From contig JAVJSW010000049.1 of assembly GCA_040219255.1 (NCBI GenBank), positions 58,067 to 122,066 on the forward strand: a stretch of DNA of 64,000 nucleotides, read 5' to 3'. Position 1 is the stretch's first letter. Each line of letters begins with the position of its first letter. Under the pieces are notes generated by a model. It did not search any database. It had not been told where the DNA came from and was given only the letters and a program-made list of their open reading frames with translations. This document shows, one piece after another, positions 7,221 through 39,333 of this stretch. The stretch comes from Sumerlaeia bacterium. Its GTDB lineage: Bacteria; Sumerlaeota; Sumerlaeia; SLMS01; JAHLLQ01. A program made the translations under genes and the position numbers.

Positions 7221-9470
7221 TTAGTAGCGGGTTTCCGACGGCGGGGGCAGGACCGGCTGCGAAGGACGGGCGCCACCGCCTCCATCGGTCGGCGAAGGCC
7301 GGCGGGTTTCTTCCTCGCGGTCCCTTTCCGAACCGGGTTCGGCGGGGCGGTCCTGACCGCCACGGGTGCGGACGGGAGCCTCGCCGCCGCCGCCGCGATT
7401 GCCACCGCCACCGCCAATGGAGGCGCTGCCGCCGGTCGCCTGCGGCCGGAAGTTCGAATCGCGGCCCGCGCCGGCGGCCGGCTGGCGCACTTCGCGGGTC
7501 ACGCCCAACTGCTCGAGTTCGCCCGCCACCCCGGCGCCTTCCGCGCCAGACATCAAGTCCGACGGATCGAAATCGAAGTCCCCAGCCTCGATGTCCTCCA
7601 GGCTGATGTCTTCATCCGCGGCGGGCGCATAGCTCTCCGTGTTCTCCGCATAGTTCGTCACCATGCGGCCCCGTCGGCCGTCTTCGTTGATCTGGCGGGG
7701 GATGGTGTCTTCCACGATGGTCGGGGTGATGAAGATTTGGAGTTGAGTTCTATTGGTCGTGGTGGAGCGCGAACCGAAAACCGGCCCCACAACGGGCAGG
7801 CTCGAAAGGAATGGCAAGCCGCCGTTTGTCTCCGCGTCCGAGTTCGTGATCAAACCACCGATCACGCGCGTCTGTCCCGAGGGAATCGTCAAGATCGTTT
7901 CCAGCGTTTGCGTATCGCTTCGGATCAGAGTGAATTCCTCGCCGTCAGCCAACCGAGTGACCGGCTGGGCATCGTCGTTGTCGATCTGCAAGTCCAGCTC
8001 GATCAGATAGCTGTTGGAAATCGAGGGGGTCACTTCGAAAGTCAAACCGTCGCGCACCGTCTGCTGGGTTTGTGTGCGGAAATTGTTCACGTTGTTTGTA
8101 TCGGTGATCGTCGAAAGGAACGGTTCCTCCGAACCGACGCGAATTCGCGAGGCTTCCTGATTCTTCACCAGCAGGCGCGGCTGGAGAAGAGTCTTCGTGT
8201 TGGTGTCTTCAAAGGAGGCTTGATACTCGATGAAAGCTTCGTCGCCCAAGTAAGCGCCAGCAAGCTGGTTGCCGCTCAGCGCCAGGTAAGGAAAGGTCGA
8301 CGCCAATTCCCGGAATCCCATGCCGTCATCGTCATCATCGATGGTTCCGACGGGATTTCGGGGACCAACCCGCGTGCCAGCCGCGTCCGGTGGATTGATA
8401 AACGGATCGCCCGAGATCGCAGCCTGCTGAAGCCCGATGTTGAAGCCACGATTGAACGTCGTCTGCAAGATCTCGGCTTGGATCAGCACCTGCTTCACCG
8501 GACGGTCGAAACCAGCCAGGATCTGCTCCACGCGCTCGTGGACCTCGGGCACGTCTTCCAGGATGAAGACACCCTGCTTGTCATTGATTTCAAACAGCAG
8601 GTCCGGCGTGCGGATGGTCTCGATGATCTCCTGCAACTGCTCCAGGTCCTCGCCGTCGATGCCGATGTTGTTCACATCGTAGATGACGATTTCCGGACCC
8701 ACGTCCAGGATGTCGATCAGCAGCTCCATCTTCTTGATGTTGCTCAGCAGGTCCGTCACAATGATCTGGTGGGTTTTCGGGTCCACCTCGATGGTACCCG
8801 GGTCGCTCTTGTAGGTTTCGATTTTCTGGGCGATGTCCTCCACGTCGGCGTAGCGCAGGTAGAAGACGCGGGTAAAGAGCTGGACGTCGATTTCACGGAT
8901 CAGGCGCTCGATGCGCTCGATCACGTCGGGCAGATCGCTGACGATGATTTTGTTCGTGCGGTTGTCGCTCGTGATGCTGCCGATGTCGCGGGTCAGGGCG
9001 GGTCGGATCGCCTGCTCCAACTCCGCCGCGTTCACATGATCGGGGCGGAAAATCTTCGTGATGACTTTGTTCGGCAGGATATTCTGGCGGTACCATTGCT
9101 CATCGGCGATGCCGAATGTGCCGTCGTCCTGCTTGAACCACACCAGATTGTTCGGCGTGGCAAGACTCGTCAGTGCTTCCTCCAGGGTGGCGTCCGGTTT
9201 GAAAATCGAGACCCGCTGGCCAACCGCGCGGCCAAAGGCCGAGATGCTGGTGTCGGCCTGATTCCCGAGGACCTGCAGCACGATTTCGATCTTGGCGTCG
9301 TTGAACACCGCCTTCACTTTGCGGTCGCCGGGGTTTTCGGCCATTTCCTGGGCCCGGGCGGTGCCCGGCAGGCCGAGGGCCGCCGCCACCAGCAACGCCC
9401 ACAGCACCGGCCACAGGGCCGCGGCGGGGCGGGAGAGGATTGAACGAAGGGGGGTGATCAACGTGGTCAT
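7221..9470 (-). CDS. Secretin (GspD/PilQ family outer-membrane channel) with multiple N-domains and a Gly/Arg-rich C-terminal tail.
   Basis: ORF 7221..9632; Met55 begins a signal peptide (MTTLITPLRSILSRPAAALWPVLWALLVAAALGLPGTARAQE). Several NolW-like N-domains (RVFYLRYADVEDIAQKI...IIVTD). Secretin C-domain signature GGLPFLSSLPVVGPVFGSRSTTTNRTQLQIFITPTIVED. The last ~70 aa are GGGGNRGGGG / RD-rich. Confidence 0.85.
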   Translation of the reverse strand: MTTLITPLRSILSRPAAALWPVLWALLVAAALGLPGTARAQEMAENPGDRKVKAVFNDAKIEIVLQVLGNQADTSISAFGRAVGQRVSIFKPDATLEEALTSLATPNNLVWFKQDDGTFGIADEQWYRQNILPNKVITKIFRPDHVNAAELEQAIRPALTRDIGSITSDNRTNKIIVSDLPDVIERIERLIREIDVQLFTRVFYLRYADVEDIAQKIETYKSDPGTIEVDPKTHQIIVTDLLSNIKKMELLIDILDVGPEIVIYDVNNIGIDGEDLEQLQEIIETIRTPDLLFEINDKQGVFILEDVPEVHERVEQILAGFDRPVKQVLIQAEILQTTFNRGFNIGLQQAAISGDPFINPPDAAGTRVGPRNPVGTIDDDDDGMGFRELASTFPYLALSGNQLAGAYLGDEAFIEYQASFEDTNTKTLLQPRLLVKNQEASRIRVGSEEPFLSTITDTNNVNNFRTQTQQTVRDGLTFEVTPSISNSYLIELDLQIDNDDAQPVTRLADGEEFTLIRSDTQTLETILTIPSGQTRVIGGLITNSDAETNGGLPFLSSLPVVGPVFGSRSTTTNRTQLQIFITPTIVEDTIPRQINEDGRRGRMVTNYAENTESYAPAADEDISLEDIEAGDFDFDPSDLMSGAEGAGVAGELEQLGVTREVRQPAAGAGRDSNFRPQATGGSASIGGGGGNRGGGGEAPVRTRGGQDRPAEPGSERDREEETRRPSPTDGGGGARPSQPVLPPPSETRY

Positions 9471-13257: not shown

Positions 13258-13415
13258 GGCGAAAAGATATTGCTTGCGCTCGAAAGGGATCACGGGAATA
13301 GATTTTTCCTGATCAGCAAATTTACCAGATGAATTCATCAGGCCGCCTTTCTTCCAAGGGACGACCCTCATCCGAATTGCTCCCGGGGACATTGATTTCG
13401 CTCGAGAATGGCTCA

Positions 13416-14822
13416 ATGATGAAACTCTCGGTTTTTCTTTTCTCGCTCCTAATCTGTTCCGTCAGCACGAGTGGTCAGTCGCAACAGACTGCGGATTCAC
13501 AGGAATACGTTTTGTCTGTATTTGAAGCCCATTTGAGGGCGATGCTCGACTTGAGTTCTGTTCAGGGCTTCGGCACCTTTGAGACAATTCAGTATGGAAG
13601 GCCTACCGAGGTTGATCAAGGCGTTCTTGCCAGCCGGATGCGGGAGTACAAAGCGTCATTCTCTCAAGGCGTTCCTAGTTCGCAAGGCATGACGGATGAG
13701 CAGGCATACGCGCTGGCTCTTCATTCTTTTGAGAAACCGACAGAACGGATTCAAGCCCCCTTTACTTTAGCCAGGTATCACGATCAGTTCACAGTAACAT
13801 TTCGAAACTTGATCGTTCAGACTTCGAGTTACGGGGATAATGGCAATGTCACAACTCATGCTCAGCCAAAGCTCCAAGCCTTTTCGAGTCGAGGAGATTT
13901 GACTGTTCGATTTTCTGAAGGGTGGGAGGCCACGCGAGGGAAGAACACTGCGGAAATCGAAGAGACTGCCAATATCCCTTACGTCATGTTTTGGGGATTG
14001 GGCTCATTTCTCGATTCGCGTTTCCATGACATCAATACTACTGGCTTCCTGATTCATATGTCAAGACAGAATCCCTCCATCATTTCGGAAAGCCAACAAG
14101 CAATTGAAATCAGAATCGAGAATCCCGCAACTAAAGTCCCTGACATCTTTGTTTTTGATAAGAACAAGGACTTTGCTTTACTGGAGAGGCGGACATATCG
14201 AATGGGTTCGTCTGGCGAACCTTACTTGCATTCACATGATGTATACAGTGAGTATGTTTCATCGAATGGCCGATGGTGGCCCCGCTTGACCGAGCGAATT
14301 CGTTATCGCGACCCACAGCCAAATACCGACTCCGAAATTGACAGGAAAGAGCGGATCGCTTTCGACGAGATCGCCGTTGATGGTATCGTCGAGAAGGAGA
14401 AGTACGATTTCCTGATCCCTGCCAATACTCATTTTCAGGCTGGCTATGGTTTGAAAAACCAGGCCATCCTTGCGAAGTTGCCATACTTGCAGGAGTTTCC
14501 CGTTCATTTGTCAAGTATCGAAGAGAGCTTTCTTGACGCACCCGTTCCAGGTGTCAACGTCCACGACGATTTCAACTTGTCCGAGTCCGAAGCTCAGGAA
14601 GACATTCCAAGTCGTCAGCAAACAGCGATTTCGAAAAACCTGAGTCCCCCAGACGGTGAATCAAGCGATGTTCGAGAAGCTGAGCCGCGTGCAAACACAG
14701 CCACCGGGCGGACCTCTCAGTTTCCCAGGAATCTAATATATTTTAGCCTGGCCTTGACTGGTATCCTTGCGGCTGTCGCTGGGCTGGTAGCCCTGACCCG
14801 GCTAATCGCTACGAAACGGTAA
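13416..14822 (+). CDS. Hypothetical protein with N-terminal signal peptide and C-terminal transmembrane anchor (469 aa); low-GC island 2.
   Basis: ORF 13329..14822; Met30 begins MMKLSVFLFSLLICSVSTSG. C-terminus NLIYFSLALTGILAAVAGLVALTRLIATKR is a TM helix with a basic stop-transfer. GC is much lower than the flanks. No recognisable catalytic motif. Confidence 0.6.
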   Translation: MMKLSVFLFSLLICSVSTSGQSQQTADSQEYVLSVFEAHLRAMLDLSSVQGFGTFETIQYGRPTEVDQGVLASRMREYKASFSQGVPSSQGMTDEQAYALALHSFEKPTERIQAPFTLARYHDQFTVTFRNLIVQTSSYGDNGNVTTHAQPKLQAFSSRGDLTVRFSEGWEATRGKNTAEIEETANIPYVMFWGLGSFLDSRFHDINTTGFLIHMSRQNPSIISESQQAIEIRIENPATKVPDIFVFDKNKDFALLERRTYRMGSSGEPYLHSHDVYSEYVSSNGRWWPRLTERIRYRDPQPNTDSEIDRKERIAFDEIAVDGIVEKEKYDFLIPANTHFQAGYGLKNQAILAKLPYLQEFPVHLSSIEESFLDAPVPGVNVHDDFNLSESEAQEDIPSRQQTAISKNLSPPDGESSDVREAEPRANTATGRTSQFPRNLIYFSLALTGILAAVAGLVALTRLIATKR

Positions 14823-17905: not shown

Positions 17906-18739
17906 ATGTACAGTCTCCTCAAAGCCCCCATCCTGAAAATCCTCAAGGTTCCGCCCGAGCCCGAGGACCCCTTTGGCAACAGCCGCAGCCTGAAAGTCTT
18001 TCGCGCCGCGGAAGGCTATTTCCACTACAAACTCATCACCTTCCTCATCGGACAGCTTTTCGCCTTCATCGGCCTCGTGGTCGGTGTCGTGATTTTCTTC
18101 ATCGCGGTGTCCTCGGAAATCCAGGACCCGACTCTGCGCACGATCGTTCTCGTGATCGAGGTCGGCGCCGTCCTGTTCTTTTTCCTCCAGTTGCTCTTGA
18201 ATCTGGCGTTGCTTCGGCTCGAATACGAACTGCGCTGGTATAAGATCACGGACCGCAGTTTGCGTATCCGCGAGGGCGTCTGGAGCGTGCGGGAAATGAC
18301 CATGTCCTTCGCCAACATCCAAAACATCTCGATCAGCCAGGGGCCGCTCCAGCGGCTCTTCAAGATCGCCGACCTCAAGGTCCAAAGCGCCGGCGGCGGC
18401 GGCGTGGTGGAAGCCCAGCAGGCCCAGCAGTCGGGCGCCGTGAACATGCACCTCGGCTATTTCCGCGGCGTGGACAACGCCGAGGAAATCCGCGACCTGA
18501 TGCGCGAGCGCCTGCGCCGCCTGCGCGACTCCGGCCTGGGCGATCATGACGAATCGGCCGACGAAGTCCCCGCGGATGTGACGCCCCCCACGCAGCCATC
18601 GCTCCAGATGCTCGACGGCACGGATTGGCAGGGACTCCTGGCGGACCTGCGCGGCGAGGCCAAAGCCTTCCGCGCCGCCGCCGAGCGCCTCTCCTCCGCA
18701 CCGCGACAATCCAACGGCGGGACAACCGAAACCTCTTGA
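17906..18739 (+). CDS. bPH_2 (YdbT-like) membrane protein, second of the pair.
   Basis: Starts 4 nt after the previous stop. TM segments (LITFLIGQLFAFIGLVVGVVIFFIAV), then YKITDRSLRIREGVWSVREMTMSFANIQNISISQGPLQRLFKIADLKVQSAGG (bPH_2 pattern). Confidence 0.7.
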   Translation: MYSLLKAPILKILKVPPEPEDPFGNSRSLKVFRAAEGYFHYKLITFLIGQLFAFIGLVVGVVIFFIAVSSEIQDPTLRTIVLVIEVGAVLFFFLQLLLNLALLRLEYELRWYKITDRSLRIREGVWSVREMTMSFANIQNISISQGPLQRLFKIADLKVQSAGGGGVVEAQQAQQSGAVNMHLGYFRGVDNAEEIRDLMRERLRRLRDSGLGDHDESADEVPADVTPPTQPSLQMLDGTDWQGLLADLRGEAKAFRAAAERLSSAPRQSNGGTTETS

Positions 18740-30623: not shown

Positions 30624-31250
30624 TCACAGCCCCCGGTGCGGTTCCGGCAGGGGCCGTTGGGCCTCGTAGATGTCGGCCGGCGGGTACCAGCCTTCCTCGT
30701 CCTGGATGCGGGCGATTTCCGCCAAAGCGAGGCGGAGCCACTCAGGGGGGTTCGGGACGGTGCAGCCGCGATGGTGCTCGAAAACGATAATCCGGATCGG
30801 CCCGGCGCCCTCGAACCCGTCGGCGATCCAGGATTGGCCGTAGCGGTCGTAGCTCAGACAAAGCGGATCGCGCAGCGATTGCGTGATGTGAAGGCATTCG
30901 TGGGTGAGGCGAATGCGGCGGGCGAGGACGAAGTGGCTGATTGCCAGAATGGCAAGGGCCACGCAAGAAATCAGGATGAGCAGCAATCCCCCCACAACCC
31001 ATTCCAGCTCCGTTGAGGCGCTGCCCTCCCGAACGGCCTCGAAGCCAACGGCCAGGCCAAGGAGGGCCAGGGGCGGAACCACGCAGGTCCATCGATTGTA
31101 GTGCGCGGGCCAGTTCCAAATCTGAATGCGATTCGCCATCGCATCCGCCAGCCGGTCGGCGACAGGCGGTTGGACGAAGGGTTCGGTGCGGGTGGAGATT
31201 CCGATTTTCATGGGGTCGATCGAGAAGCCGCCGGACGCGGAGGCGGCCAT
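30624..31250 (-). CDS. Hypothetical membrane protein with HExxH motif (HECLH) directly after a TM helix; last gene of the terminase module. Start at 31250 or 31211.
   Basis: ORF 30624..32255. Only the C-terminal ~200 aa are non-degenerate; upstream is Arg/Pro junk antisense to the terminase. Two TM helices (VVPPLALLGLAVGF; WVVGGLLLILISCVALAILAISHFVLA), then RLTHECLHITQSL. Confidence 0.5.
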   Translation of the reverse strand: MAASASGGFSIDPMKIGISTRTEPFVQPPVADRLADAMANRIQIWNWPAHYNRWTCVVPPLALLGLAVGFEAVREGSASTELEWVVGGLLLILISCVALAILAISHFVLARRIRLTHECLHITQSLRDPLCLSYDRYGQSWIADGFEGAGPIRIIVFEHHRGCTVPNPPEWLRLALAEIARIQDEEGWYPPADIYEAQRPLPEPHRGL

Positions 31251-31315: not shown

Positions 31316-33070
31316 TCAGCCATGGCACAAGTCTCTCCTTTTCAAAGGTTTTTGGCCGGGGCGAGGAGCGTGATGGAGGCTTTCGGCTTCGAAATCGGAC
31401 CCGCTCCCTCGGCGCTGTGCCGAACGTTGGGCGAGGGCGGCGGCCCCGGCGGCGGCGTCGAGCGCGTCGTCGTGGGCGGTGCGGGGAAAGCGCGCCAGTT
31501 CCTCCCAGAACTCTTCCGGCAGGGTCTCGCCCAGCACCAGGCGGCCATTCGCCAGCAGCGGCTCCAGGGCGGCGATGCGGGCTTCTTTGCGGCGCGTGGG
31601 TTTGACGACTTCGATGACGAGATCGGCTCCAGGAAGGCCCTCGGCGCCGCGGCGCCGGCGCTCCTCTTCGATGGGCAGGGTCAGCAGTTCCTGGAACCCG
31701 GTGCCTTCCACGGCGAGGCGCTCGAAGGGCAGCTCCTCGTGCATGGCGAAGAGGGCGGCGACCTGCTCGCTCGGTTTGGCGCGTTTGACCCAGAGGTCGA
31801 GGAGGATGAGGAGGCCGCCCTCGGCCACCGCGACGCGGGCGAGGGCGGCGAAGTCGCCTGTGCCTTGGGCGCGGCTCTTCCCAAGGGCCGAGTCGAGGAA
31901 GCCGAAGACGCGCAGGGGTCCCTCGACGCGGCGGGGAGGCTGGGCCGGGGCGCCGTGGCTGGCGGGCGGCAGGAGGTCGACGGCGCCGCCGGTGGCGGGG
32001 CGGGCGCGCCAGTAGCGCTCGGGTTCGAAGAGGGCGTCTTCGGGGCCGAGGGGCTGGTTCTGTTTCTCCTGATAGAAGGCGCGGCGGCCGTTGGCGATCA
32101 TCTGGGCCATGAGGTGCTCGATGTCTTCGTGCTCGGGCCAGAGGACGGCGGTTCCGGCCTCCATGGCGCGGCGGTGCTCGAGGAAGTATCCCCGGGCGGC
32201 GGCGCGGCGGCCGGGGGTGGCCGGGTCCGAGAGCAGGCGGCGCCATTCCTCCCACGCGGGCGAGGGCGGCGGGAAGGCCTGGACGGATGGCAGGACGAGG
32301 CCTTCGAAGTCCGGGCGCCCGATGAGCGCGGGCAGTAGTCCGGCGGGATGGAGGATCGTGCCGACGGCCAGCATATGGGTAGCTCCGTCGCCGAGGTGCT
32401 CGATGACCTCGGCGAACCAGTCGTGGGTCTTGGCGCGGCGCCGGGGCGAATCGGCGGCGGCGGTGGATTCGGCGTCGTCGAGGATGATTTTCGTGGGGCG
32501 CCAGCCGTCGTGGCTGATGCCGCGCATTTCGGCGCCACAGCCAAAGGCTTCGACGCGGACGCCGCCCACAACGAGGGCGCGTTCGGTGCTCTCGACGTTG
32601 GCACGGCCGCAGAGTTCGGGATAGAAGCGGGTGATGGCCCCCCGGCCCAGGAGTTCGGCGCGCAGGGCGGCGAGGCGCTGCTGGGCCTGGCGCTGGGTGG
32701 CGGAGACGAGGACGATGTAGCGCTCGCGGCGGTAGGCGAGGTCGTGGAGGACGAGGGCGAAGCTGGCGAGGGTGCTCTTGGCCGAACCGCGCGGAGCGGC
32801 CACGGCGAAGCGCAGCCCGGCGCGATCGGGAAAGGGGGGCTCGCCCATGCGCCGGTGCCAGGCGAAGAGCTGGCGGTGGAACGGCGCGAAGGGCAGGCGG
32901 GCGAAATCCGGCAGCGCCAGGCGGACGAAGAGCGGCAGGTCGGCGGCGGCGCGCTCGCGCAGGAGCGCCGGGTGCCGCCGCGGGTTAATCGTCTTCAGAA
33001 GCTGATGAAAGGTGGCCGGCGAGCAGGTCCGGACCCAGTTTTTCGAGGTGGGCGAGGAAGTCGTCATCAT
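31316..33070 (-). CDS. Phage terminase large subunit-like protein (ATPase + RNase-H-like nuclease).
   Basis: Walker A AAPRGSAKST. Walker B-like KIILDDAES. C-terminal nuclease-fold Asp residues in FGFLDSALGKS...GDFAALARV and ARFPRTAHDDALDAAAG, matching the TerL terminal-nuclease (terminase_6C / TIGR01630-like) pattern. Confidence 0.75.
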   Translation of the reverse strand: MMTTSSPTSKNWVRTCSPATFHQLLKTINPRRHPALLRERAAADLPLFVRLALPDFARLPFAPFHRQLFAWHRRMGEPPFPDRAGLRFAVAAPRGSAKSTLASFALVLHDLAYRRERYIVLVSATQRQAQQRLAALRAELLGRGAITRFYPELCGRANVESTERALVVGGVRVEAFGCGAEMRGISHDGWRPTKIILDDAESTAAADSPRRRAKTHDWFAEVIEHLGDGATHMLAVGTILHPAGLLPALIGRPDFEGLVLPSVQAFPPPSPAWEEWRRLLSDPATPGRRAAARGYFLEHRRAMEAGTAVLWPEHEDIEHLMAQMIANGRRAFYQEKQNQPLGPEDALFEPERYWRARPATGGAVDLLPPASHGAPAQPPRRVEGPLRVFGFLDSALGKSRAQGTGDFAALARVAVAEGGLLILLDLWVKRAKPSEQVAALFAMHEELPFERLAVEGTGFQELLTLPIEEERRRRGAEGLPGADLVIEVVKPTRRKEARIAALEPLLANGRLVLGETLPEEFWEELARFPRTAHDDALDAAAGAAALAQRSAQRRGSGSDFEAESLHHAPRPGQKPLKRRDLCHG

Positions 33071-33356
33071 CGGGGGTGGTCTCCGTGAGGGTGTTGAGGC
33101 GATGGGCGAGGAGTTCGATTTCGAGGAGGGTCTTGGTCATGGCGAAGGCATTCTTGAGTTCCGCCAGACGGTCCGGCGCCGGCAGGCGCGCGTGGGAGTT
33201 TTCGGCCTCGGAGAGGGAGGCGTCGAAGAGGGCGAGCCAGCGCTTGAGGAGCCCGTGGGCGAGATCGAGGGTGGGGCGCCATTGGGGCTCTTGGGGTGGA
33301 GGGGTTGGCTTGGACATGGGTGAGGGGGGCCTTTCGGTGGCGAGTTGGAAAGGCAT
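32985..33356 (-). CDS. Small acidic helical protein upstream of and overlapping the terminase gene (candidate small terminase/DNA-recognition subunit or regulator). Start uncertain (33356 or 33317).
   Basis: ORF 32985..33422. Overlaps the terminase start by ~85 nt, a common small/large terminase arrangement. No motif recognised. Confidence 0.4.
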   Translation of the reverse strand: MPFQLATERPPSPMSKPTPPPQEPQWRPTLDLAHGLLKRWLALFDASLSEAENSHARLPAPDRLAELKNAFAMTKTLLEIELLAHRLNTLTETTPDDDDFLAHLEKLGPDLLAGHLSSASEDD

Positions 33357-33416
33357 GGAAACACAGACGGTTTCGTTTGTCCCCTCATGTGGAGCTTCGG
33401 GAGAAAGAAAGACAAA

Positions 33417-33488
33417 ATACACTTATCAGACAAGATTCACCTGTCAGACAAAACGCACCTATCAGACAAGACAGACCTGTCAGACAAG
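33417..33488. repeat. Four tandem 18-bp direct repeats (iteron-like): ATACACTTATCAGACAAG / ATTCACCTGTCAGACAAA / ACGCACCTATCAGACAAG / ACAGACCTGTCAGACAAG. Consensus A-N-N-C/G-A-C-(C/T)-T-R-TCAGACAAR.
   Basis: Read directly from the sequence. Unit length is exactly 18 with no spacers. The array lies ~60-130 nt 5' of the small ORF/terminase operon on the minus strand and ~280 nt 5' of the Fe-S carrier gene on the plus strand. Confidence 0.8.
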
Positions 33489-33769
33489 TGGGCGAAAAGA
33501 TCCGGTGCGGAGGAAAGCCCCCACGGCTGGACGGGGAGGCGGGCGGTGAAGAGGCCCGATTGTCCAGGTTTCCGAAAAGAAGCCTGGACACTGGGAAAGA
33601 CGGCGCGGCGTTGGAAGGCAATAACTGGACACCATGCCGGGAATTGTGAGCGGGAGGGAGTTGGCAAGAAGTCTGCTACTCAGAGACGTGACGCGCCTTT
33701 TTGGCGCTTGGAATCACAGAACCCCCGAATTATCAACACTTTGCGAAGAGGCACAGGAGAGGTGGAGAG

Positions 33770-34093
33770 ATGATTGAGATCACTCCGAAAGCAGCGGATG
33801 AAGTGAAACGGCTTCTGAAGACGGAAGGCAAAGAGGACTGGGCGCTGCGGGTCGGCGTCGTGGGCGGTGGCTGTTCCGGGCTGAACTACACGCTGGCCTT
33901 CGACAAGGATCCGGGCAAGGCGGACACGGTTTTCGTGATCGATGGCATCCGGGTTCTGGTCGATCCAAAGGCCTACCTGTTTCTGAACGGCATGACCGTG
34001 GACTATTCCTCGGACCTTCTGAACGGCGGGTTCCGCTTCGTGAACCCGAACGCCAAGCGCACGTGCTCCTGCGGGACGTCGTTCGCGGTCTAA
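33770..34093 (+). CDS. Iron-sulfur cluster insertion/carrier protein, HesB/IscA/ErpA family.
   Basis: ORF 33701..34093; Met24 is preceded by AGGAGAGGTGGAGAG. MIEITPKAADEVKRLL...GGGCSGLNY...FVNPNAKRTCSCGTSF, with the three conserved Cys. Confidence 0.9.
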   Translation: MIEITPKAADEVKRLLKTEGKEDWALRVGVVGGGCSGLNYTLAFDKDPGKADTVFVIDGIRVLVDPKAYLFLNGMTVDYSSDLLNGGFRFVNPNAKRTCSCGTSFAV

Positions 34094-34121
34094 CGCACCG
34101 AAGCCAAACGAGAAGACCGGA

Positions 34122-34154
34122 AGCCGCTTGCTGAGAGCGGCTGTTTGGTTTTTA
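34122..34154 (+). terminator. Putative rho-independent terminator (stem AGCCGC/GCGGCT, loop TTGCTGAGA, followed by GTTTGGTTTTT) between convergent Fe-S carrier gene and proB.
   Basis: Inverted repeat plus T-rich tail seen in sequence. Modest stem. Confidence 0.35.
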
Positions 34155-34222
34155 AGCCGATGGGTGAAAGAGAGACAGGGGTGGAAGCCGAGGCGCGGGC
34201 CCTGGGATGAAGGCCCCGGCGC

Positions 34223-35464
34223 CTACACCGGCACGCCGTCGTCCGGGCCGGGCACACGGCCGCTGCGCTCCAGCGCCGTGACGTGCAGGTTGTTGCGGTG
34301 GATCGCTTCGTCGTACTCGGGGCGTTTGCCGAGCGCTTCGGGAAGATCGTGGACGCGGCAGCCCTTGATGCGGTCGAGGATTTCGCGCGAGTAATTGGTG
34401 ACGCCGCGGGCGATTTCTTCCCCGCCGGGGCCCAGGACGGTGACGACATCGCCGCGGGTGAAGCGGCCCTCGACGGCGGTGATGCCGACGGGCAGGAGGC
34501 TGCGGCCGCCTTCGACGAGGGCGGCGCGGGCGCCATCGTCCACGACGATGCGGCCTTTGGGGCGGCGCTGGGCAATCCAGTGGGTGCGGGCGCGGCCACG
34601 GGCGCGCAGGGCGCGGCTGCCACTGGGCAGGAAATGGGTGCCCCGGAACTCGCCAGCGAAGATATCCCCTAGAATCGTGTCGCAACGCCCATTGGCCACG
34701 ACAGCGTGCAGCCCAAAGCGGTTGGCGTGGCGGGCCGCTTCGACCTTGCTGGCCATGCCGCCGCGGCCGACACCGCTGATGGAGCCACCGGCGACGGCGA
34801 GCAATTCGGGCGTGATGCGGTCGACCTGCTCGATCAGTTGGGCCTGTGGGTCATTCTGCGGATTGGCGGTGTAGAGCCCGTCGAGGTCCGTCAGGATGAC
34901 CAGCATCTCAGCGTTGGTCTTCGCGGCAATGATGGCGGAGAGCATGTCGTTGTCGCCAAAGGTCAGTTCCTCGGTGGCGACCGTGTCGTTCTCGTTGATG
35001 ATGGGAACGACGCCCTGGGTGGCGAGGAGGGCTTCGAGGGTGTGGCCGGCGTTGAGGTAGCGACGGCGGTCTTCCAGGTCCTCGCGCGTGAGAAGGATTT
35101 GGGCGGTGGCGAGCCCGTGGGGGTGGAAAGCGGCTTCCCAGGTGGCCATGAGGCGGCTCTGGCCAACGGCGGCGAGGGCCTGGAGTTGGGGCAGATGGGT
35201 GGGCCGGGCGGCCATCCCCAGGGCCCCTAAACCGGCGGCGACGGCGCCCGAAGACACGAGCAGGACCTGGCTGCCTCGGGTGGTGACTTCGGCAATCTGC
35301 GCGGCGATGGACTGGAGCCGCGCGCGGTTGAGTCCGGGCCCGGGATGGCTCAGGACGTTGCTTCCGACCTTGACGACGACGCGCAGCGGAGGGCGGCCCT
35401 GATCGAAGGGGAAACGGGTGCGGACGGTGGTGGCAAAGGGGGGTGGGGACGCGCTCTCGGTCAT
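34223..35464 (-). CDS. proB: Glutamate 5-kinase (ProB) with C-terminal PUA domain.
   Basis: VVVKVGSNVL...IINENDTVATEELTFGDNDMLSAIIAAK...ILTDLDGLYT...GRGGMASKVEAA...PUA (GRIVVDDGARAALVEGGRSLLPVGI). Confidence 0.9.
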   Translation of the reverse strand: MTESASPPPFATTVRTRFPFDQGRPPLRVVVKVGSNVLSHPGPGLNRARLQSIAAQIAEVTTRGSQVLLVSSGAVAAGLGALGMAARPTHLPQLQALAAVGQSRLMATWEAAFHPHGLATAQILLTREDLEDRRRYLNAGHTLEALLATQGVVPIINENDTVATEELTFGDNDMLSAIIAAKTNAEMLVILTDLDGLYTANPQNDPQAQLIEQVDRITPELLAVAGGSISGVGRGGMASKVEAARHANRFGLHAVVANGRCDTILGDIFAGEFRGTHFLPSGSRALRARGRARTHWIAQRRPKGRIVVDDGARAALVEGGRSLLPVGITAVEGRFTRGDVVTVLGPGGEEIARGVTNYSREILDRIKGCRVHDLPEALGKRPEYDEAIHRNNLHVTALERSGRVPGPDDGVPV

Positions 35465-35760
35465 AGGTGCAAAAAGGGCCGAGACGGCCGGAAAGGCAAG
35501 GGAAACAGAGAGGACGAGCGCTTGGCGGTTTTTTTTCGCCTGGGGTCTGGAGTGGCCAAAAACGAGCGGTAAGCTCTTGAATGATTCCTTAAATTTCCAG
35601 GTGATCCCGCCGGGATCGGTGTAGATTGCGTTTTTTGTACCGCTGGACTTGGTGATGTGAGTCTTTTCGACTTGCCGGTTCGTCCGTGAGTCCCTACATT
35701 TTCCTGTTCATTTTGAGAGAGTCGCCTCTCCAGAAGACCTGCTGCCAGGAAGGTTCCGAT

Positions 35761-38700
35761 ATGACATTGGGCAAACATCGAAACTCGGATTCCCACGCGC
35801 CAGGCGGGCCCGCATGGGCTGGGCTCTTGTTGACAGGTGCGCTGTTGATGGCGGCGGGAAGCGCCTGGGCGGCTCCACCGGCGAATTACTACGACACCGC
35901 CGACACCACTAACGGCACAACGCTGCGGTCGTCCCTGCACAATATCATCGATGGGCACACCGTCTATAGCTACACGGCGGCCTACGATATTATCGCCGAC
36001 GCGAACGAAGATCCGAACAATTCGAACAACACCATTTTATTTTATACTGGCCGCTCGACACCGAAAACCAACCAGGGCGGCAACGACAGCGACCCAGCCA
36101 CCGGCGGCTACAACCGCGAGCACATCTGGCCCCAGAGCGCCTTCAACGAAAACAGCCCGATGAAGTCCGACATGCACGCGCTGTTGCCCGCCGACGCGGA
36201 CGCCAATGGCCGCCGCAGCAACTATCCCTTCCACACGGTGACGACCTCGACCTACGAGTTCTTCGGCAACAAGGTCGACACGGACAACTTCGCCGCGGGC
36301 AACATCTTCGAACCCCGCGACGCCGTGAAGGGCGATGTGGCCCGCGCGCTGTTCTACATGGACGTGCGGTACGAGGGCGACAGCGGCGAGCCGAACCTGG
36401 CGCTGAGCAGCAGCGGCTATCCCACCGGCACCGGCAGCGCCCTGATGGGGTACCTGGACGAACTGCTGGCCTGGCATGCGGCGGATCCCGTCGATCAGTT
36501 CGAAATCGACCGCCACGAGTACATCTACGGTTTCCAGAACAACCGCAACCCGTTCATCGATCATCCGGAATGGGTGGATTGCGTTTACAACAACAATTGC
36601 AGCAACGACACGACCCCGCCCGATCCGCCCATGGGGCTGGCGGCGAATGGGGGCGATGGGTCGGTGTCGCTGACGTGGAATGCCAACAGCGAGGGCGACC
36701 TCGACGGCTACAACGTCTATCGCTCGACGACGATGGGCGGGCCCTATTCGCAGATCAACGGCGCCTTGGTTCCAGCGCCTTCCTACGTGGACAACACGGT
36801 CACCAACGGCGTGACGTATTACTATGTGGTGACGGCGGTCGATACGGCGAACAACGAGTCGAACGACAGCACGCCCGCCTCGGCGACGCCGGAAACCGGG
36901 CCGGGCCTGATCGTGGCGGGGCCGATGGCGGAACCGGCGACGATTTCGTCGCTGCGGACGACGGCCTTCGACGCGCCCTGGAATTTCGATGTAACCATCA
37001 TCGACGATCAGGCCAACCCCGGCGCCGACAGCGATCCGACGCTGATTTCGCAGATTGTCTTCACCCCCGGCACGGGCAACGACTTCGCGAATTGGACGAG
37101 CGTTCTGGCGGGGGCGCGGCTGACCGATGGCACCCACTCGGTTAATGGCACGGTCGGCGCGGCGGGGCTCACCTTCGCGCTGACGAACGGGCTCAACGAA
37201 ATCGGCCACATCGCGGACAACGGTACGAAGACCTATCAGTTGAAGGTCTGGCTGAAGGAAAGCGCCACCGGCGTGGACAACGGCAACCTGGTGTTCGCCC
37301 TGGCGAGTTCGGGCATCGCGACGGAAGCGGCCGGTTCCTCGACCGTTGGCAGCAGCTCGGCGGACAGCGGCTCGACGAACAACGCGATCGAGGTGGTGGC
37401 GACGGAGCTGCGCTTCGCCAGTCAACCGCCGGACACGATCGTCGCCACGGATTTCGCCGCCTCGGTCCACGCCACCGACAAGTACGGTCGCCGCGATACG
37501 GACGCTTCGGGAAACGTAACGCTGTCGCTGGACACGGTGAACGCGGGGATTCTCTCGGCGGCAGGCGGTCTGACAAAGGCCCTCGCAGCGGGCCTGGCGA
37601 GCTGGAGCGACCTGGAAATCGACACCGGCGAAGCCGGCGTGGGACTGCTGGCGAACGCTACGGGCTTTGCGGAGAAGCGCAGCGAGAGCTTTGACGTGCT
37701 GCCCTCGGGCGGCGGCTCCGGCACCCCGGTTTTCGTGAACGAGATTCACTATGACAACGATGGCGGCGACACTGGCGAGTTCATCGAAGTCGCCGGCCCG
37801 GCGGGAACCGATCTGAGCGGCTGGACCATCGTGCTCTACAATGGCTCGAGCAGCCTGAGGAGCCCTTACTCGCCCACCATGAATCTGTCGGGTACGATCC
37901 CGGACTCGACCGGCAACGGTTTCGGCTTCCTGAGCTTCTTCCAGGCCGGCATCCAGAACGGCGACCCGGACGGGCTGGCGCTGGTGGACGACTCGAACAC
38001 CCTCATCCAGTTCCTCAGCTACGATGGGTCCTTCGTCGCCGCCAGCGGCATCGCGGCGGGCCTGACCTCGGAAAACATCGGCGGCGAGCCCACCACTACG
38101 CCCATCGGCGAGAGCCTGCAACTGACCGGCACGGGCTCGGTGTACGAGGACTTCACCTGGGCCGCAAGCACCGCCACGAACACGGCGGGCGCGCTCAACG
38201 GCAGCCAAACGTTCCAGCCCGCGGGCGGAACACTGAACGCCAACGGCGTGCTGGAATTCGCCTCGGCCAGCCGCGCCGGGTCCGAGGACGGCGGCGCCAT
38301 CGTGGTGTCGGTGCTGCGGCTGGCGGGCACGGCGGGGGCCATTGCGGTGCCGTTCTCGGTCGGCGGCGCCAGTACCGCCTCGGGCGCGGACTACACGATC
38401 GCCACGGCCAGCCCGCTCAACTTCGCCGACAGCGACGACGTCCAATCCATCACCATCAACCCGGTGGTCGATTCGGATCACCTGGAGGGGGACGAGACGA
38501 TTGTCCTTCAGTTGGGCGCGCCCACTGGCGGAGCGGCGCTGGGCGCTCAGAGCGAAGTCGTGGTGACGCTGCTGGCCAGCGACCGCACCCTGATCCCCAG
38601 CGGCACGAACCCGCCGCCGCTGGAATTCGCCGAGGGTGTGCGGGCGACGGTGGACTTCAACGACGTGTCGGCCGCGGGCGCTGGCTTCGCCGCCAATCTC

Positions 38701-39333
38701 GTCAAGGACAACGCGGCCATCGTGGGTCTGTCGTCGAGCCTCGGCGTGTACTGGGATTTCACCGTCGAAACCGGATTCGCCTTCGGTGGCGAGGTGCTGG
38801 TGACGCTCGAATACCGCGACGGCGAGCTGAACGGCGTGGATGAGAACACGATGACGCTGGTGAAGGCCAACTCGCCGGCCGGACCCTGGCAGCCCGTACA
38901 GATCGTCGAACGCGACACCGTCAACAACACTATCTCCGCCATCGTCACCGGGTTTTCGACCTTTACGGCGACCAACGATACGGTGCTGTGGGTGGACCTG
39001 GTGGCTTTCGAGGCGGAGGATCTGGGTTCGGGCGGCGTGCGTGTGACCTGGGAAACGGCGGCGGAGGTCGATTCCCTCGGCTTCCACATCCACCGCGTGG
39101 CCCCCGATGGCGGGCTGGGCGGGCAAGTCACCTCTGGCCTCGTGCCGGCCACGGGCAGCCCCCTCGGCGGTGCGTTCTACGAAGTCCTGGACAGCGAAGC
39201 GTTGGCCACCGGAGAGAGCCGCGGGTACTTCCTGGTGGAGACGGAGACCTCTGGAAAGACAACCACTTACGGACCCATCACGGTATCCGCCGAAGCGCGC
39301 GAGAGCGCCGTGGAGGATTGGACGATCTTCTGA
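35761..39333 (+). CDS. Secreted multidomain nuclease: Endonuclease I (EndA/Dns family) + fibronectin-III + lamin-tail domain (LTD), 1191 aa.
   Basis: ORF 35686..39333; Met26 begins signal peptide (GPAWAGLLLTGALLMAAGSAWAAP). Endonuclease_1 motifs REHIWPQS and NRNPFIDHPEW. FN3 (SVSLTWNANSEGDLDGYNVYRS...YYYVVTAVD). LTD (FVNEIHYDNDGGDTGEFIEVAGPAGTDLSGWTIVLYNGSS). Confidence 0.85.
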   Translation: MTLGKHRNSDSHAPGGPAWAGLLLTGALLMAAGSAWAAPPANYYDTADTTNGTTLRSSLHNIIDGHTVYSYTAAYDIIADANEDPNNSNNTILFYTGRSTPKTNQGGNDSDPATGGYNREHIWPQSAFNENSPMKSDMHALLPADADANGRRSNYPFHTVTTSTYEFFGNKVDTDNFAAGNIFEPRDAVKGDVARALFYMDVRYEGDSGEPNLALSSSGYPTGTGSALMGYLDELLAWHAADPVDQFEIDRHEYIYGFQNNRNPFIDHPEWVDCVYNNNCSNDTTPPDPPMGLAANGGDGSVSLTWNANSEGDLDGYNVYRSTTMGGPYSQINGALVPAPSYVDNTVTNGVTYYYVVTAVDTANNESNDSTPASATPETGPGLIVAGPMAEPATISSLRTTAFDAPWNFDVTIIDDQANPGADSDPTLISQIVFTPGTGNDFANWTSVLAGARLTDGTHSVNGTVGAAGLTFALTNGLNEIGHIADNGTKTYQLKVWLKESATGVDNGNLVFALASSGIATEAAGSSTVGSSSADSGSTNNAIEVVATELRFASQPPDTIVATDFAASVHATDKYGRRDTDASGNVTLSLDTVNAGILSAAGGLTKALAAGLASWSDLEIDTGEAGVGLLANATGFAEKRSESFDVLPSGGGSGTPVFVNEIHYDNDGGDTGEFIEVAGPAGTDLSGWTIVLYNGSSSLRSPYSPTMNLSGTIPDSTGNGFGFLSFFQAGIQNGDPDGLALVDDSNTLIQFLSYDGSFVAASGIAAGLTSENIGGEPTTTPIGESLQLTGTGSVYEDFTWAASTATNTAGALNGSQTFQPAGGTLNANGVLEFASASRAGSEDGGAIVVSVLRLAGTAGAIAVPFSVGGASTASGADYTIATASPLNFADSDDVQSITINPVVDSDHLEGDETIVLQLGAPTGGAALGAQSEVVVTLLASDRTLIPSGTNPPPLEFAEGVRATVDFNDVSAAGAGFAANLVKDNAAIVGLSSSLGVYWDFTVETGFAFGGEVLVTLEYRDGELNGVDENTMTLVKANSPAGPWQPVQIVERDTVNNTISAIVTGFSTFTATNDTVLWVDLVAFEAEDLGSGGVRVTWETAAEVDSLGFHIHRVAPDGGLGGQVTSGLVPATGSPLGGAFYEVLDSEALATGESRGYFLVETETSGKTTTYGPITVSAEARESAVEDWTIF

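Follow-up and report, generated by a model that had tools for sequence, protein, structure and literature searches.

Four copies of an 18-bp sequence stand in tandem on the chromosome of a Sumerlaeia bacterium, just upstream of a two-gene operon. The first gene of the operon encodes a small protein and the second a protein like the large terminase subunit (TerL) of phages, while on the other side of the array a divergent gene, erpA, encodes an Fe–S carrier. The question raised by this locus is what such an array does there, if it does anything. It could be an operator for a regulator, a site at which the terminase loads onto DNA, part of an mRNA leader, a set of iterons, a stretch of coding sequence or a neutral minisatellite. 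We tentatively favour the first of these: in our judgement there is somewhat less than an even chance that the array is a multi-site cis-regulatory operator, set in a divergent promoter region.

The array and its location

The window (i.e., the whole stretch of DNA analysed here, 64 kb long) is part of a 240,892-bp contig from a Sumerlaeia MAG. At positions 33417–33488 it contains four 18-bp units, joined head to tail without gaps (ATACACTTATCAGACAAG, ATTCACCTGTCAGACAAA, ACGCACCTATCAGACAAG and ACAGACCTGTCAGACAAG), and their perfect register is exactly as the preliminary description reported. Tandem Repeats Finder (TRF) agrees, giving the array a period of 18, 4.4 copies, 80% matches, 0% indels and a score of 88. 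A period-36 description of the same array scores higher (114), and these are the two best TRF scores in the window, the next being 52. As a pattern for its copies, the array motif can be written YTRTCAGACAAR.

The array is locus-specific. As regards further copies of the repeat core, a point raised in the preliminary description, CTRTCAGACAAR with at most one mismatch is restricted within the window to four places, all in the array (0.45 expected by chance; none of 100 shuffles reached four), and the array motif is absent from 118 kb of other Sumerlaeota DNA. An exact copy of a shorter part of the unit, TCAGACAA, occurs once in the window outside the array, at 30854. An independent Logan assembly contains the identical array (contig L133 of run SRR26147846, matched via the exact ErpA sequence), so the array is not an assembly artefact. 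L133, which carries erpA and proB, begins at the outer edge of the array, its positions 1–90 corresponding to 33405–33494 of the window; the assembly may have broken off at this point because of the repeat or of a change in coverage.

The surroundings of the array are ordinary chromosome. It lies in the 452-bp intergenic region between erpA, which is adjoined by proB, and the small ORF (Table 1). The other scanned genes of the window are of hisI-type, MgtC, MFS, glycosyltransferase, secretin, dxr, rseP-like and ECF-type sigma factor kinds, and a Pfam scan of genes across the 64 kb found no Rep, Par, integrase, portal, capsid or tail gene. The preliminary description placed the array about 280 nt upstream of the Fe–S carrier gene, which is right (281 nt from the erpA ATG at 33770), and about 60–130 nt upstream of the small ORF, which should read 100–171 nt from the annotated ATG (33317, minus strand). 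With a GC content of about 0.43, the array is the lowest-GC stretch in the part of the window profiled (30–37 kb), where genes are at about 0.6–0.78. Two genes away, at 35686–39333 on the plus strand, is a gene whose 1215-aa product is secreted; it begins with an endonuclease I domain (E=8e-50) and also has a Calx-beta domain.

Table 1. Features of the array and its neighbourhood, in window coordinates.
Feature	Position	Strand	Remark
Stand-alone TerL-like gene, 584 aa, RLY93_12645	31316–33070	−	phrog_38 E=5e-76; weak Terminase_6C
Small ORF, 110 aa, RLY93_12650	32985–33317	−	First gene of the operon downstream of the array
Spurious (K/I)HLSDK ORF	33345–33773	+	Non-coding-like GC3
Partial fifth unit, AGACAAA	33410–33416		Right half-site in register, 18 bp ahead of the next; TRF array starts at 33410
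Unit 1, ATACA + CTTATC-A-GACAAG	33417–33434		Dyad core 33422–33434
Unit 2, ATTCA + CCTGTC-A-GACAAA	33435–33452		Dyad core 33440–33452
Unit 3, ACGCA + CCTATC-A-GACAAG	33453–33470		Dyad core 33458–33470
Unit 4, ACAGA + CCTGTC-A-GACAAG	33471–33488		Dyad core 33476–33488
Inverted repeat, CCGATTGTCCAGGTTTC / GAAGCCTGGACACTGGG	33556–33595		17-nt arms, 82% complementary
Sigma-54-type −24/−12 element, TTGGCAAGAAGTCTGCT	33661–33677	+	92 nt upstream of erpA
erpA/IscA-type Fe–S carrier gene	33770–34093	+	PF01521; divergent from the small ORF

An open frame runs through the array on the plus strand, and if it were used, the repeats would be translated as (K/I)HLSDK units of a repeat-containing protein. 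The preliminary description called this ORF spurious, and its composition bears that out: GC3 is 0.57 and GC1 is 0.52, compared with a GC3 of 0.72–0.88 in real genes of the window. The frame also has no Pfam match and overlaps both the sigma-54-type promoter and the start of erpA. We give translation of the repeats a negligible probability. The array is a real tandem element at the DNA level, and the preliminary description was right to call it non-coding and to place it between the divergent Fe–S carrier gene and the 5′ end of the small-ORF/TerL operon.

Symmetry of the units and a possible neutral origin

Each unit opens with a variable spacer of 5 bp, and its other 13 bp form an imperfect dyad, CYTRTC-A-GACAAR. 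All four units share TCAGACAA, which comprises the right arm, the centre base and the adjoining T. Of the six columns that vary, three belong to the spacer. Complementary bases occupy 18 of 24 arm positions, where the null mean is 13.4 (P=0.013). This null was made by permuting the 18 columns identically in all units, which keeps the tandem structure, so the symmetry exceeds that of comparable tandem arrays. By itself, the run of 8 bp shared by the four diverged copies does not reach significance (about P=0.12, by a combinatorial estimate).

The main rival to an operator is a neutral minisatellite. An 18-bp (or 36-bp) segment would have been duplicated by slippage or unequal recombination, and the copies would then have drifted to about 80% identity without having any sequence-specific function. 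Position 9 of the units alternates A, G, A, G, and this, along with the better score of period 36, fits a history in which 18 bp became 36 and then 72. The lack of significant clustering among the variable positions is also what drift would give. The excess of dyad symmetry over column-permuted arrays, however, speaks against neutrality, as does the retention of register and of the invariant 8-bp core in copies that have otherwise diverged. Taken with the comparison of relatives below, we consider a neutral origin rather unlikely, while regarding it as a serious competitor. If it is correct, the array is useful only as a strain marker.

Comparison with related genomes

The order of erpA and the small ORF–TerL pair is kept in seven other Sumerlaeia genomes, in which the outer neighbours differ. 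Their erpA-to-small-ORF intergenic regions are 230–379 bp long, i.e., about 70–220 bp shorter than that of the window. Apart from one shared block, the sigma-54-type element described below, these regions do not align, and the 18-bp array is in none of the seven. The preliminary description looked to conservation in related strains as a guide to function: the array is indeed missing from all relatives that retain the flanking genes, but this is not decisive, as those relatives are distant, with the TerL of the window lineage having 53–61% identity to those of all syntenic relatives and being an outgroup to the others. Since the motif is absent from these genomes and from the other Sumerlaeota DNA searched, no conservation supports a function for it. 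A CTTGTC motif common to the window and L127 was considered and set aside as coincidental, being one exact copy in a comparison where the window lineage is the outgroup.

Several relatives have tandem repeats of a different kind at the equivalent place, 65–155 nt upstream of the small ORF. L003 and L129 have a 9-bp repeat in 2.6–3.3 copies (L003 4674–4704, L129 2465–2494), L130 has a 9-bp repeat in 4.2 copies (2689–2726) that is degenerate in L005, and L004 has a 7-bp repeat in 4.3 copies (1253–1282). No upstream repeat was found in L128, L001 or L131. The 7–9-bp repeats (CGTTCCATC, CGAACCG and CATTCTTCC) are unrelated in sequence to the window array and are not self-complementary.

How these repeats should be read depends on how common such arrays are elsewhere. 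Among other Sumerlaeota intergenic regions, 7 of 45 contain an array with a TRF score of at least 39, with L131 accounting for four of them, which gives a baseline of 16%. Compared with this baseline, a tandem array in the erpA/small-ORF region of four out of six independent lineages is an excess (binomial P about 0.008), and some property of the position seems to promote repeats, which is a further point against a purely neutral array. The baseline itself nevertheless indicates that the phylum makes arrays readily, so a neutral origin of the window array is credible. The absence of the array from every syntenic relative, the shorter intergenic regions there and the unrelated repeats that L003/L129, L004 and L130 have at the corresponding position all fit such an origin as well.

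It may be that short tandem repeats between genes are characteristic of the phylum as a whole. In L131 (candidate division BRC1 bacterium HGW-BRC1-1), 4 of the 11 intergenic regions examined contain strong arrays with 8–11-bp units (13365–13422, 8316–8371, 1541–1580 and 18549–18584), e.g., CTTTGCGT in 7.2 copies and CACCGGTTGCA in 5.1 copies.

The array as a possible operator

In the operator reading that we favour, the putative regulator would be a sequence-specific and probably dimeric helix-turn-helix protein, for which the array would provide four adjacent sites and one half-site. Cooperative filling of these sites, which are 18 bp apart from centre to centre, would cover about 80 bp upstream of the small-ORF start. 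The occupied array would then repress the stand-alone terminase operon; activation is less likely. Operators typically lie where this array does, ahead of an operon and between divergent genes. The repeats, their non-coding nature, dyad symmetry and position, and their uniqueness within the window are direct observations; that a protein binds, which protein it is and which promoter responds are inferred. The unit does correspond to about 1.7 helical turns, as was first proposed, but the sites are not presented on strictly alternating faces, because neighbouring ones are about 100 degrees out of phase.

The units resemble the operators of GntR/FadR regulators, for which the consensus is TNGTNNNACNA, as quoted in PMC11472048. 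Each has the dyad core T-GT-CAG-AC-A and matches four to five of the six specified positions; the consensus has just these six, so the match is just a lead. A related arrangement was found in unrelated high-GC metagenome contigs, where two perfect palindromes, TTGTCAGACAAT, stand at exactly 18-bp spacing. In L042 (2572–2599) the pair abuts the start codon of a gene matching Pfam GntR and FCD and is presumably an autoregulatory double operator, found through motif similarity only; the pair is also present in L046, L049, L071 and L079. These cases show that the TTGTCAGACAAT sequence and the 18-bp geometry serve as an operator somewhere, which is not the same as homology with the window array. 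With the dyad symmetry of the units and this GntR/FCD-flanking palindrome at the same spacing, an operator array for a repressor-type protein, one of the options originally put forward, is still the best reading.

The likeness to GntR/FadR operators is incomplete. The array has four and a half sites where those operators have one or two, its left arms are degenerate, and the target operon is a stand-alone terminase rather than a catabolic one. The cognate regulator of a GntR/FadR operator is usually encoded adjacent to it, whereas the Pfam-scanned genes of the 64-kb window include none for a GntR, RHH, Xre or enhancer-binding protein.

Wider pattern searches gave little further context. The exact two-unit pattern had no match in IMG/VR. 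A looser two-unit pattern had at least 120 matches in metagenome contigs; among the matches listed, most were coding repeats or unrelated operators, and none was in a Sumerlaeota, TerL or erpA context by tblastn. We also compared the array by eye with consensuses for Fur, IHF, LexA, PhoB, MetJ and Mu C-protein sites, none of which fitted.

The array is a new instance of an already known kind of element. If it is an operator, its value would lie in what it controls, as it would give a handle on how an uncultured phylum regulates a phage-derived terminase that has been kept for a long time and is apparently active. In that case, the array could also be used as bait for the regulator.

The stand-alone terminase and its partner

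The TerL-like protein has more than 120 homologues at E<1e-75, and the named ones are from Sumerlaeota (BRC1), with 33–62% identity to the window protein. The closest TerLs of isolated phages are Mu-like (Mushu and D3112/DMS3-type) at 28–33% identity, and the closest in IMG/VR is at 34%. Across 15 Sumerlaeota homologues there is no variation in Walker A (AAPRGxAKS), Walker B (ILDDAE) or the nuclease aspartates. Because the ATPase and nuclease residues are conserved to this degree, the enzyme is probably active.

The gene and its small partner form a stand-alone pair, seen in the window (31316–33317, minus strand) and in L001–L006 and L127–L132. In two further, more distant genomes, the TerL gene sits amid housekeeping genes, without virion genes. 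A scan of genome contigs with TerL, in a collection that is without the window's own genome, returned two distant loci only. TerL and its partner look like an ancient domestication across the phylum Sumerlaeota; a literature search brought up no relevant work on terminases in Sumerlaeota or on domesticated terminases that stand alone. A stand-alone, phylum-wide terminase with a private partner is more intriguing than the array in front of it.

When read from its first ATG, the TerL ORF overlaps the small ORF by 86 nt (32985–33070), and in relatives there is an overlap of 8–83 nt or a small gap. The alignment of homologues starts at about residue 13–37, so the true TerL start may be further downstream than the first ATG.

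The small partner (~100 aa) is Sumerlaeia-specific and, in homologous loci, always directly upstream of the TerL-like gene. Its family is tiny: there are 20 matches among 5.8 billion proteins, and when 1.8 billion representatives were searched with a profile, about 14 small homologues or clusters emerged and the rest was coiled-coil noise. An exact-sequence look-up of the small ORF returned nothing, and there was no match to Pfam, PHROGs, PADLOC, BFVD or PDB. The partner is absent beside the nearest viral TerLs, and the longer homologue P0100 is not a fusion of it with TerL. Its N-terminal region varies between relatives. AlphaFold models it as a two-helix hairpin with an acidic tail and no HTH (pLDDT 74), and a protein of this predicted shape is not a recognisable small terminase (TerS).

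A recognition site for the terminase?

With a terminase gene so close, the array might be a pac-like site. The partner and/or the TerL-like enzyme would bind the repeats, and cleavage or translocation of DNA would begin at this site on the chromosome. In phage lambda, the R sites of cosB are direct repeats recognised by TerS, and they lie 5′ of a small gene that is followed by terL. The window array has the same layout, with direct repeats in the promoter region directly 5′ of a small gene and then terL. In SPP1 and SF6, the pac sites are likewise direct repeats, located around the terS promoter (PMC4737164). The invariant catalytic residues of the TerL-like enzyme also suit this reading, and the differing repeats of the relatives, together with the variable N-terminus of the partner, would fit a protein–site pair that co-evolves.

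The same comparison reveals differences. The partner has no recognisable DNA-binding domain or fold and is not homologous to any TerS, which weakens the pac reading, and it is missing where the nearest viral TerLs are found. No virion genes were found near the array: the search for portal, capsid and tail genes was negative both in those parts of the window that were scanned and next to the homologues of two further Sumerlaeota contigs. L128, L001 and L131 do without any upstream repeat. The array is also strictly contiguous and in register, whereas sets of pac boxes are dispersed. The preliminary description suggested TerS/pac recognition as an option, and of this the TerL-like gene stands, while the partner and the missing head genes count against the rest. 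We regard a pac-like site as improbable, and retain it at that level because SPP1-type pac consists of direct repeats and because repeats recur in the relatives.

A related proposal is that the array and the unrelated repeats of the relatives are fast-evolving recognition sites of a domesticated terminase, which is loaded there to cut or pump host DNA. Such a terminase could be part of a GTA-like or lateral-transduction-like system, or could serve non-viral DNA processing, its specificity co-evolving with the repeats. We consider this proposal decidedly improbable. Were the array a loading site, however, it would mark where a new form of DNA packaging or processing, under host control, begins.

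An RNA element or a replication site?

The array could instead function as RNA. Transcribed from the minus strand, it would lie in the leader of the small-ORF/TerL mRNA as a long imperfect hairpin with a U-rich tail, acting as an attenuator or an RNase III-type site. The minus strand of 33405–33495 folds at −31 kcal/mol (z=−5.1, with 0 of 200 shuffles folding as well), whereas the plus strand reaches only −12.2 kcal/mol (z=−0.5). On the minus strand the departures from dyad symmetry are all G–U wobbles, and UAUUUUGUCUUUCUUUCU comes directly after the hairpin.

However, when the fold is compared with column-permuted tandem arrays of equal composition, which are the proper null, it is unexceptional (P=0.075). 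Most of the fold signal thus comes from the tandem repetition and from the richness of the strand in G and U. No minus-strand promoter was identified upstream of the array, and a sigma-70 promoter scan found none near it. An Rfam scan of 32800–34300 at E≤1 gave only a chance-level snoRNA match (E=0.38), and the sole terminator in a terminator scan was that of erpA, at 34122. The lack of self-complementarity in the relatives' repeats is a further point against an RNA element. We think a role as RNA highly improbable.

The preliminary description also suggested iterons bound by a Rep protein. In form alone the array suits a replication origin with Rep-bound iterons, or else a centromere-like partition site for ParB/ParR: it has four to five 18-bp direct repeats, it occupies the stretch of lowest GC among those profiled, and its units resemble plasmid and phage iterons in length (typically 17–22 bp), in number and in their direct orientation. 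Searches with Pfam, PHROG and PADLOC, which covered the neighbours and most genes of the window, found no Rep, and no par, integrase or other mobile-element gene turned up in the parts scanned. There is no cluster of DnaA boxes, the region having one box with one mismatch and the window count being below chance expectation, and cumulative GC skew runs straight through the site. The site is also chromosomal and syntenic, with erpA, proB and hisI-type genes flanking it in seven other genomes. We reject iterons on this context, which largely rules them out, and the chance that the array is a replication or partition site is minute.

The erpA promoter

The array may have a secondary role on its other side, as a distal enhancer for the sigma-54-type promoter of erpA, about 175–250 bp away. 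This promoter is better conserved than anything else between the two genes. Each of the eight Sumerlaeia intergenic regions compared has the sequence TTGGCA-N7-[T/C/G]GCT on the erpA strand, 58–107 nt ahead of the erpA start, and this −24/−12 element is the sole conserved block of the intergenic region across the eight genomes. In the window it reads TTGGCA-N7-TGCT, with equivalents in L003, L004, L005 and L127–L130. Control of an Fe–S carrier gene by sigma-54 would be unusual.

A sigma-54-type promoter needs an activator, and the enhancer-binding proteins that fill this role use rows of dyad sites. The array resembles their upstream activating sequences in being such a row, with the conserved −24/−12 element downstream of it on the erpA strand. 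It differs in being further off than is usual, and the window lacks an enhancer-binding protein gene among those scanned. In the seven relatives, no shared motif or inverted repeat was found upstream of the sigma-54 promoter. The window does have an inverted repeat between the array and the promoter (Table 1), about 70–105 bp upstream of the −24 element. This inverted repeat is a candidate enhancer site, and it is better placed than the array to serve as one.
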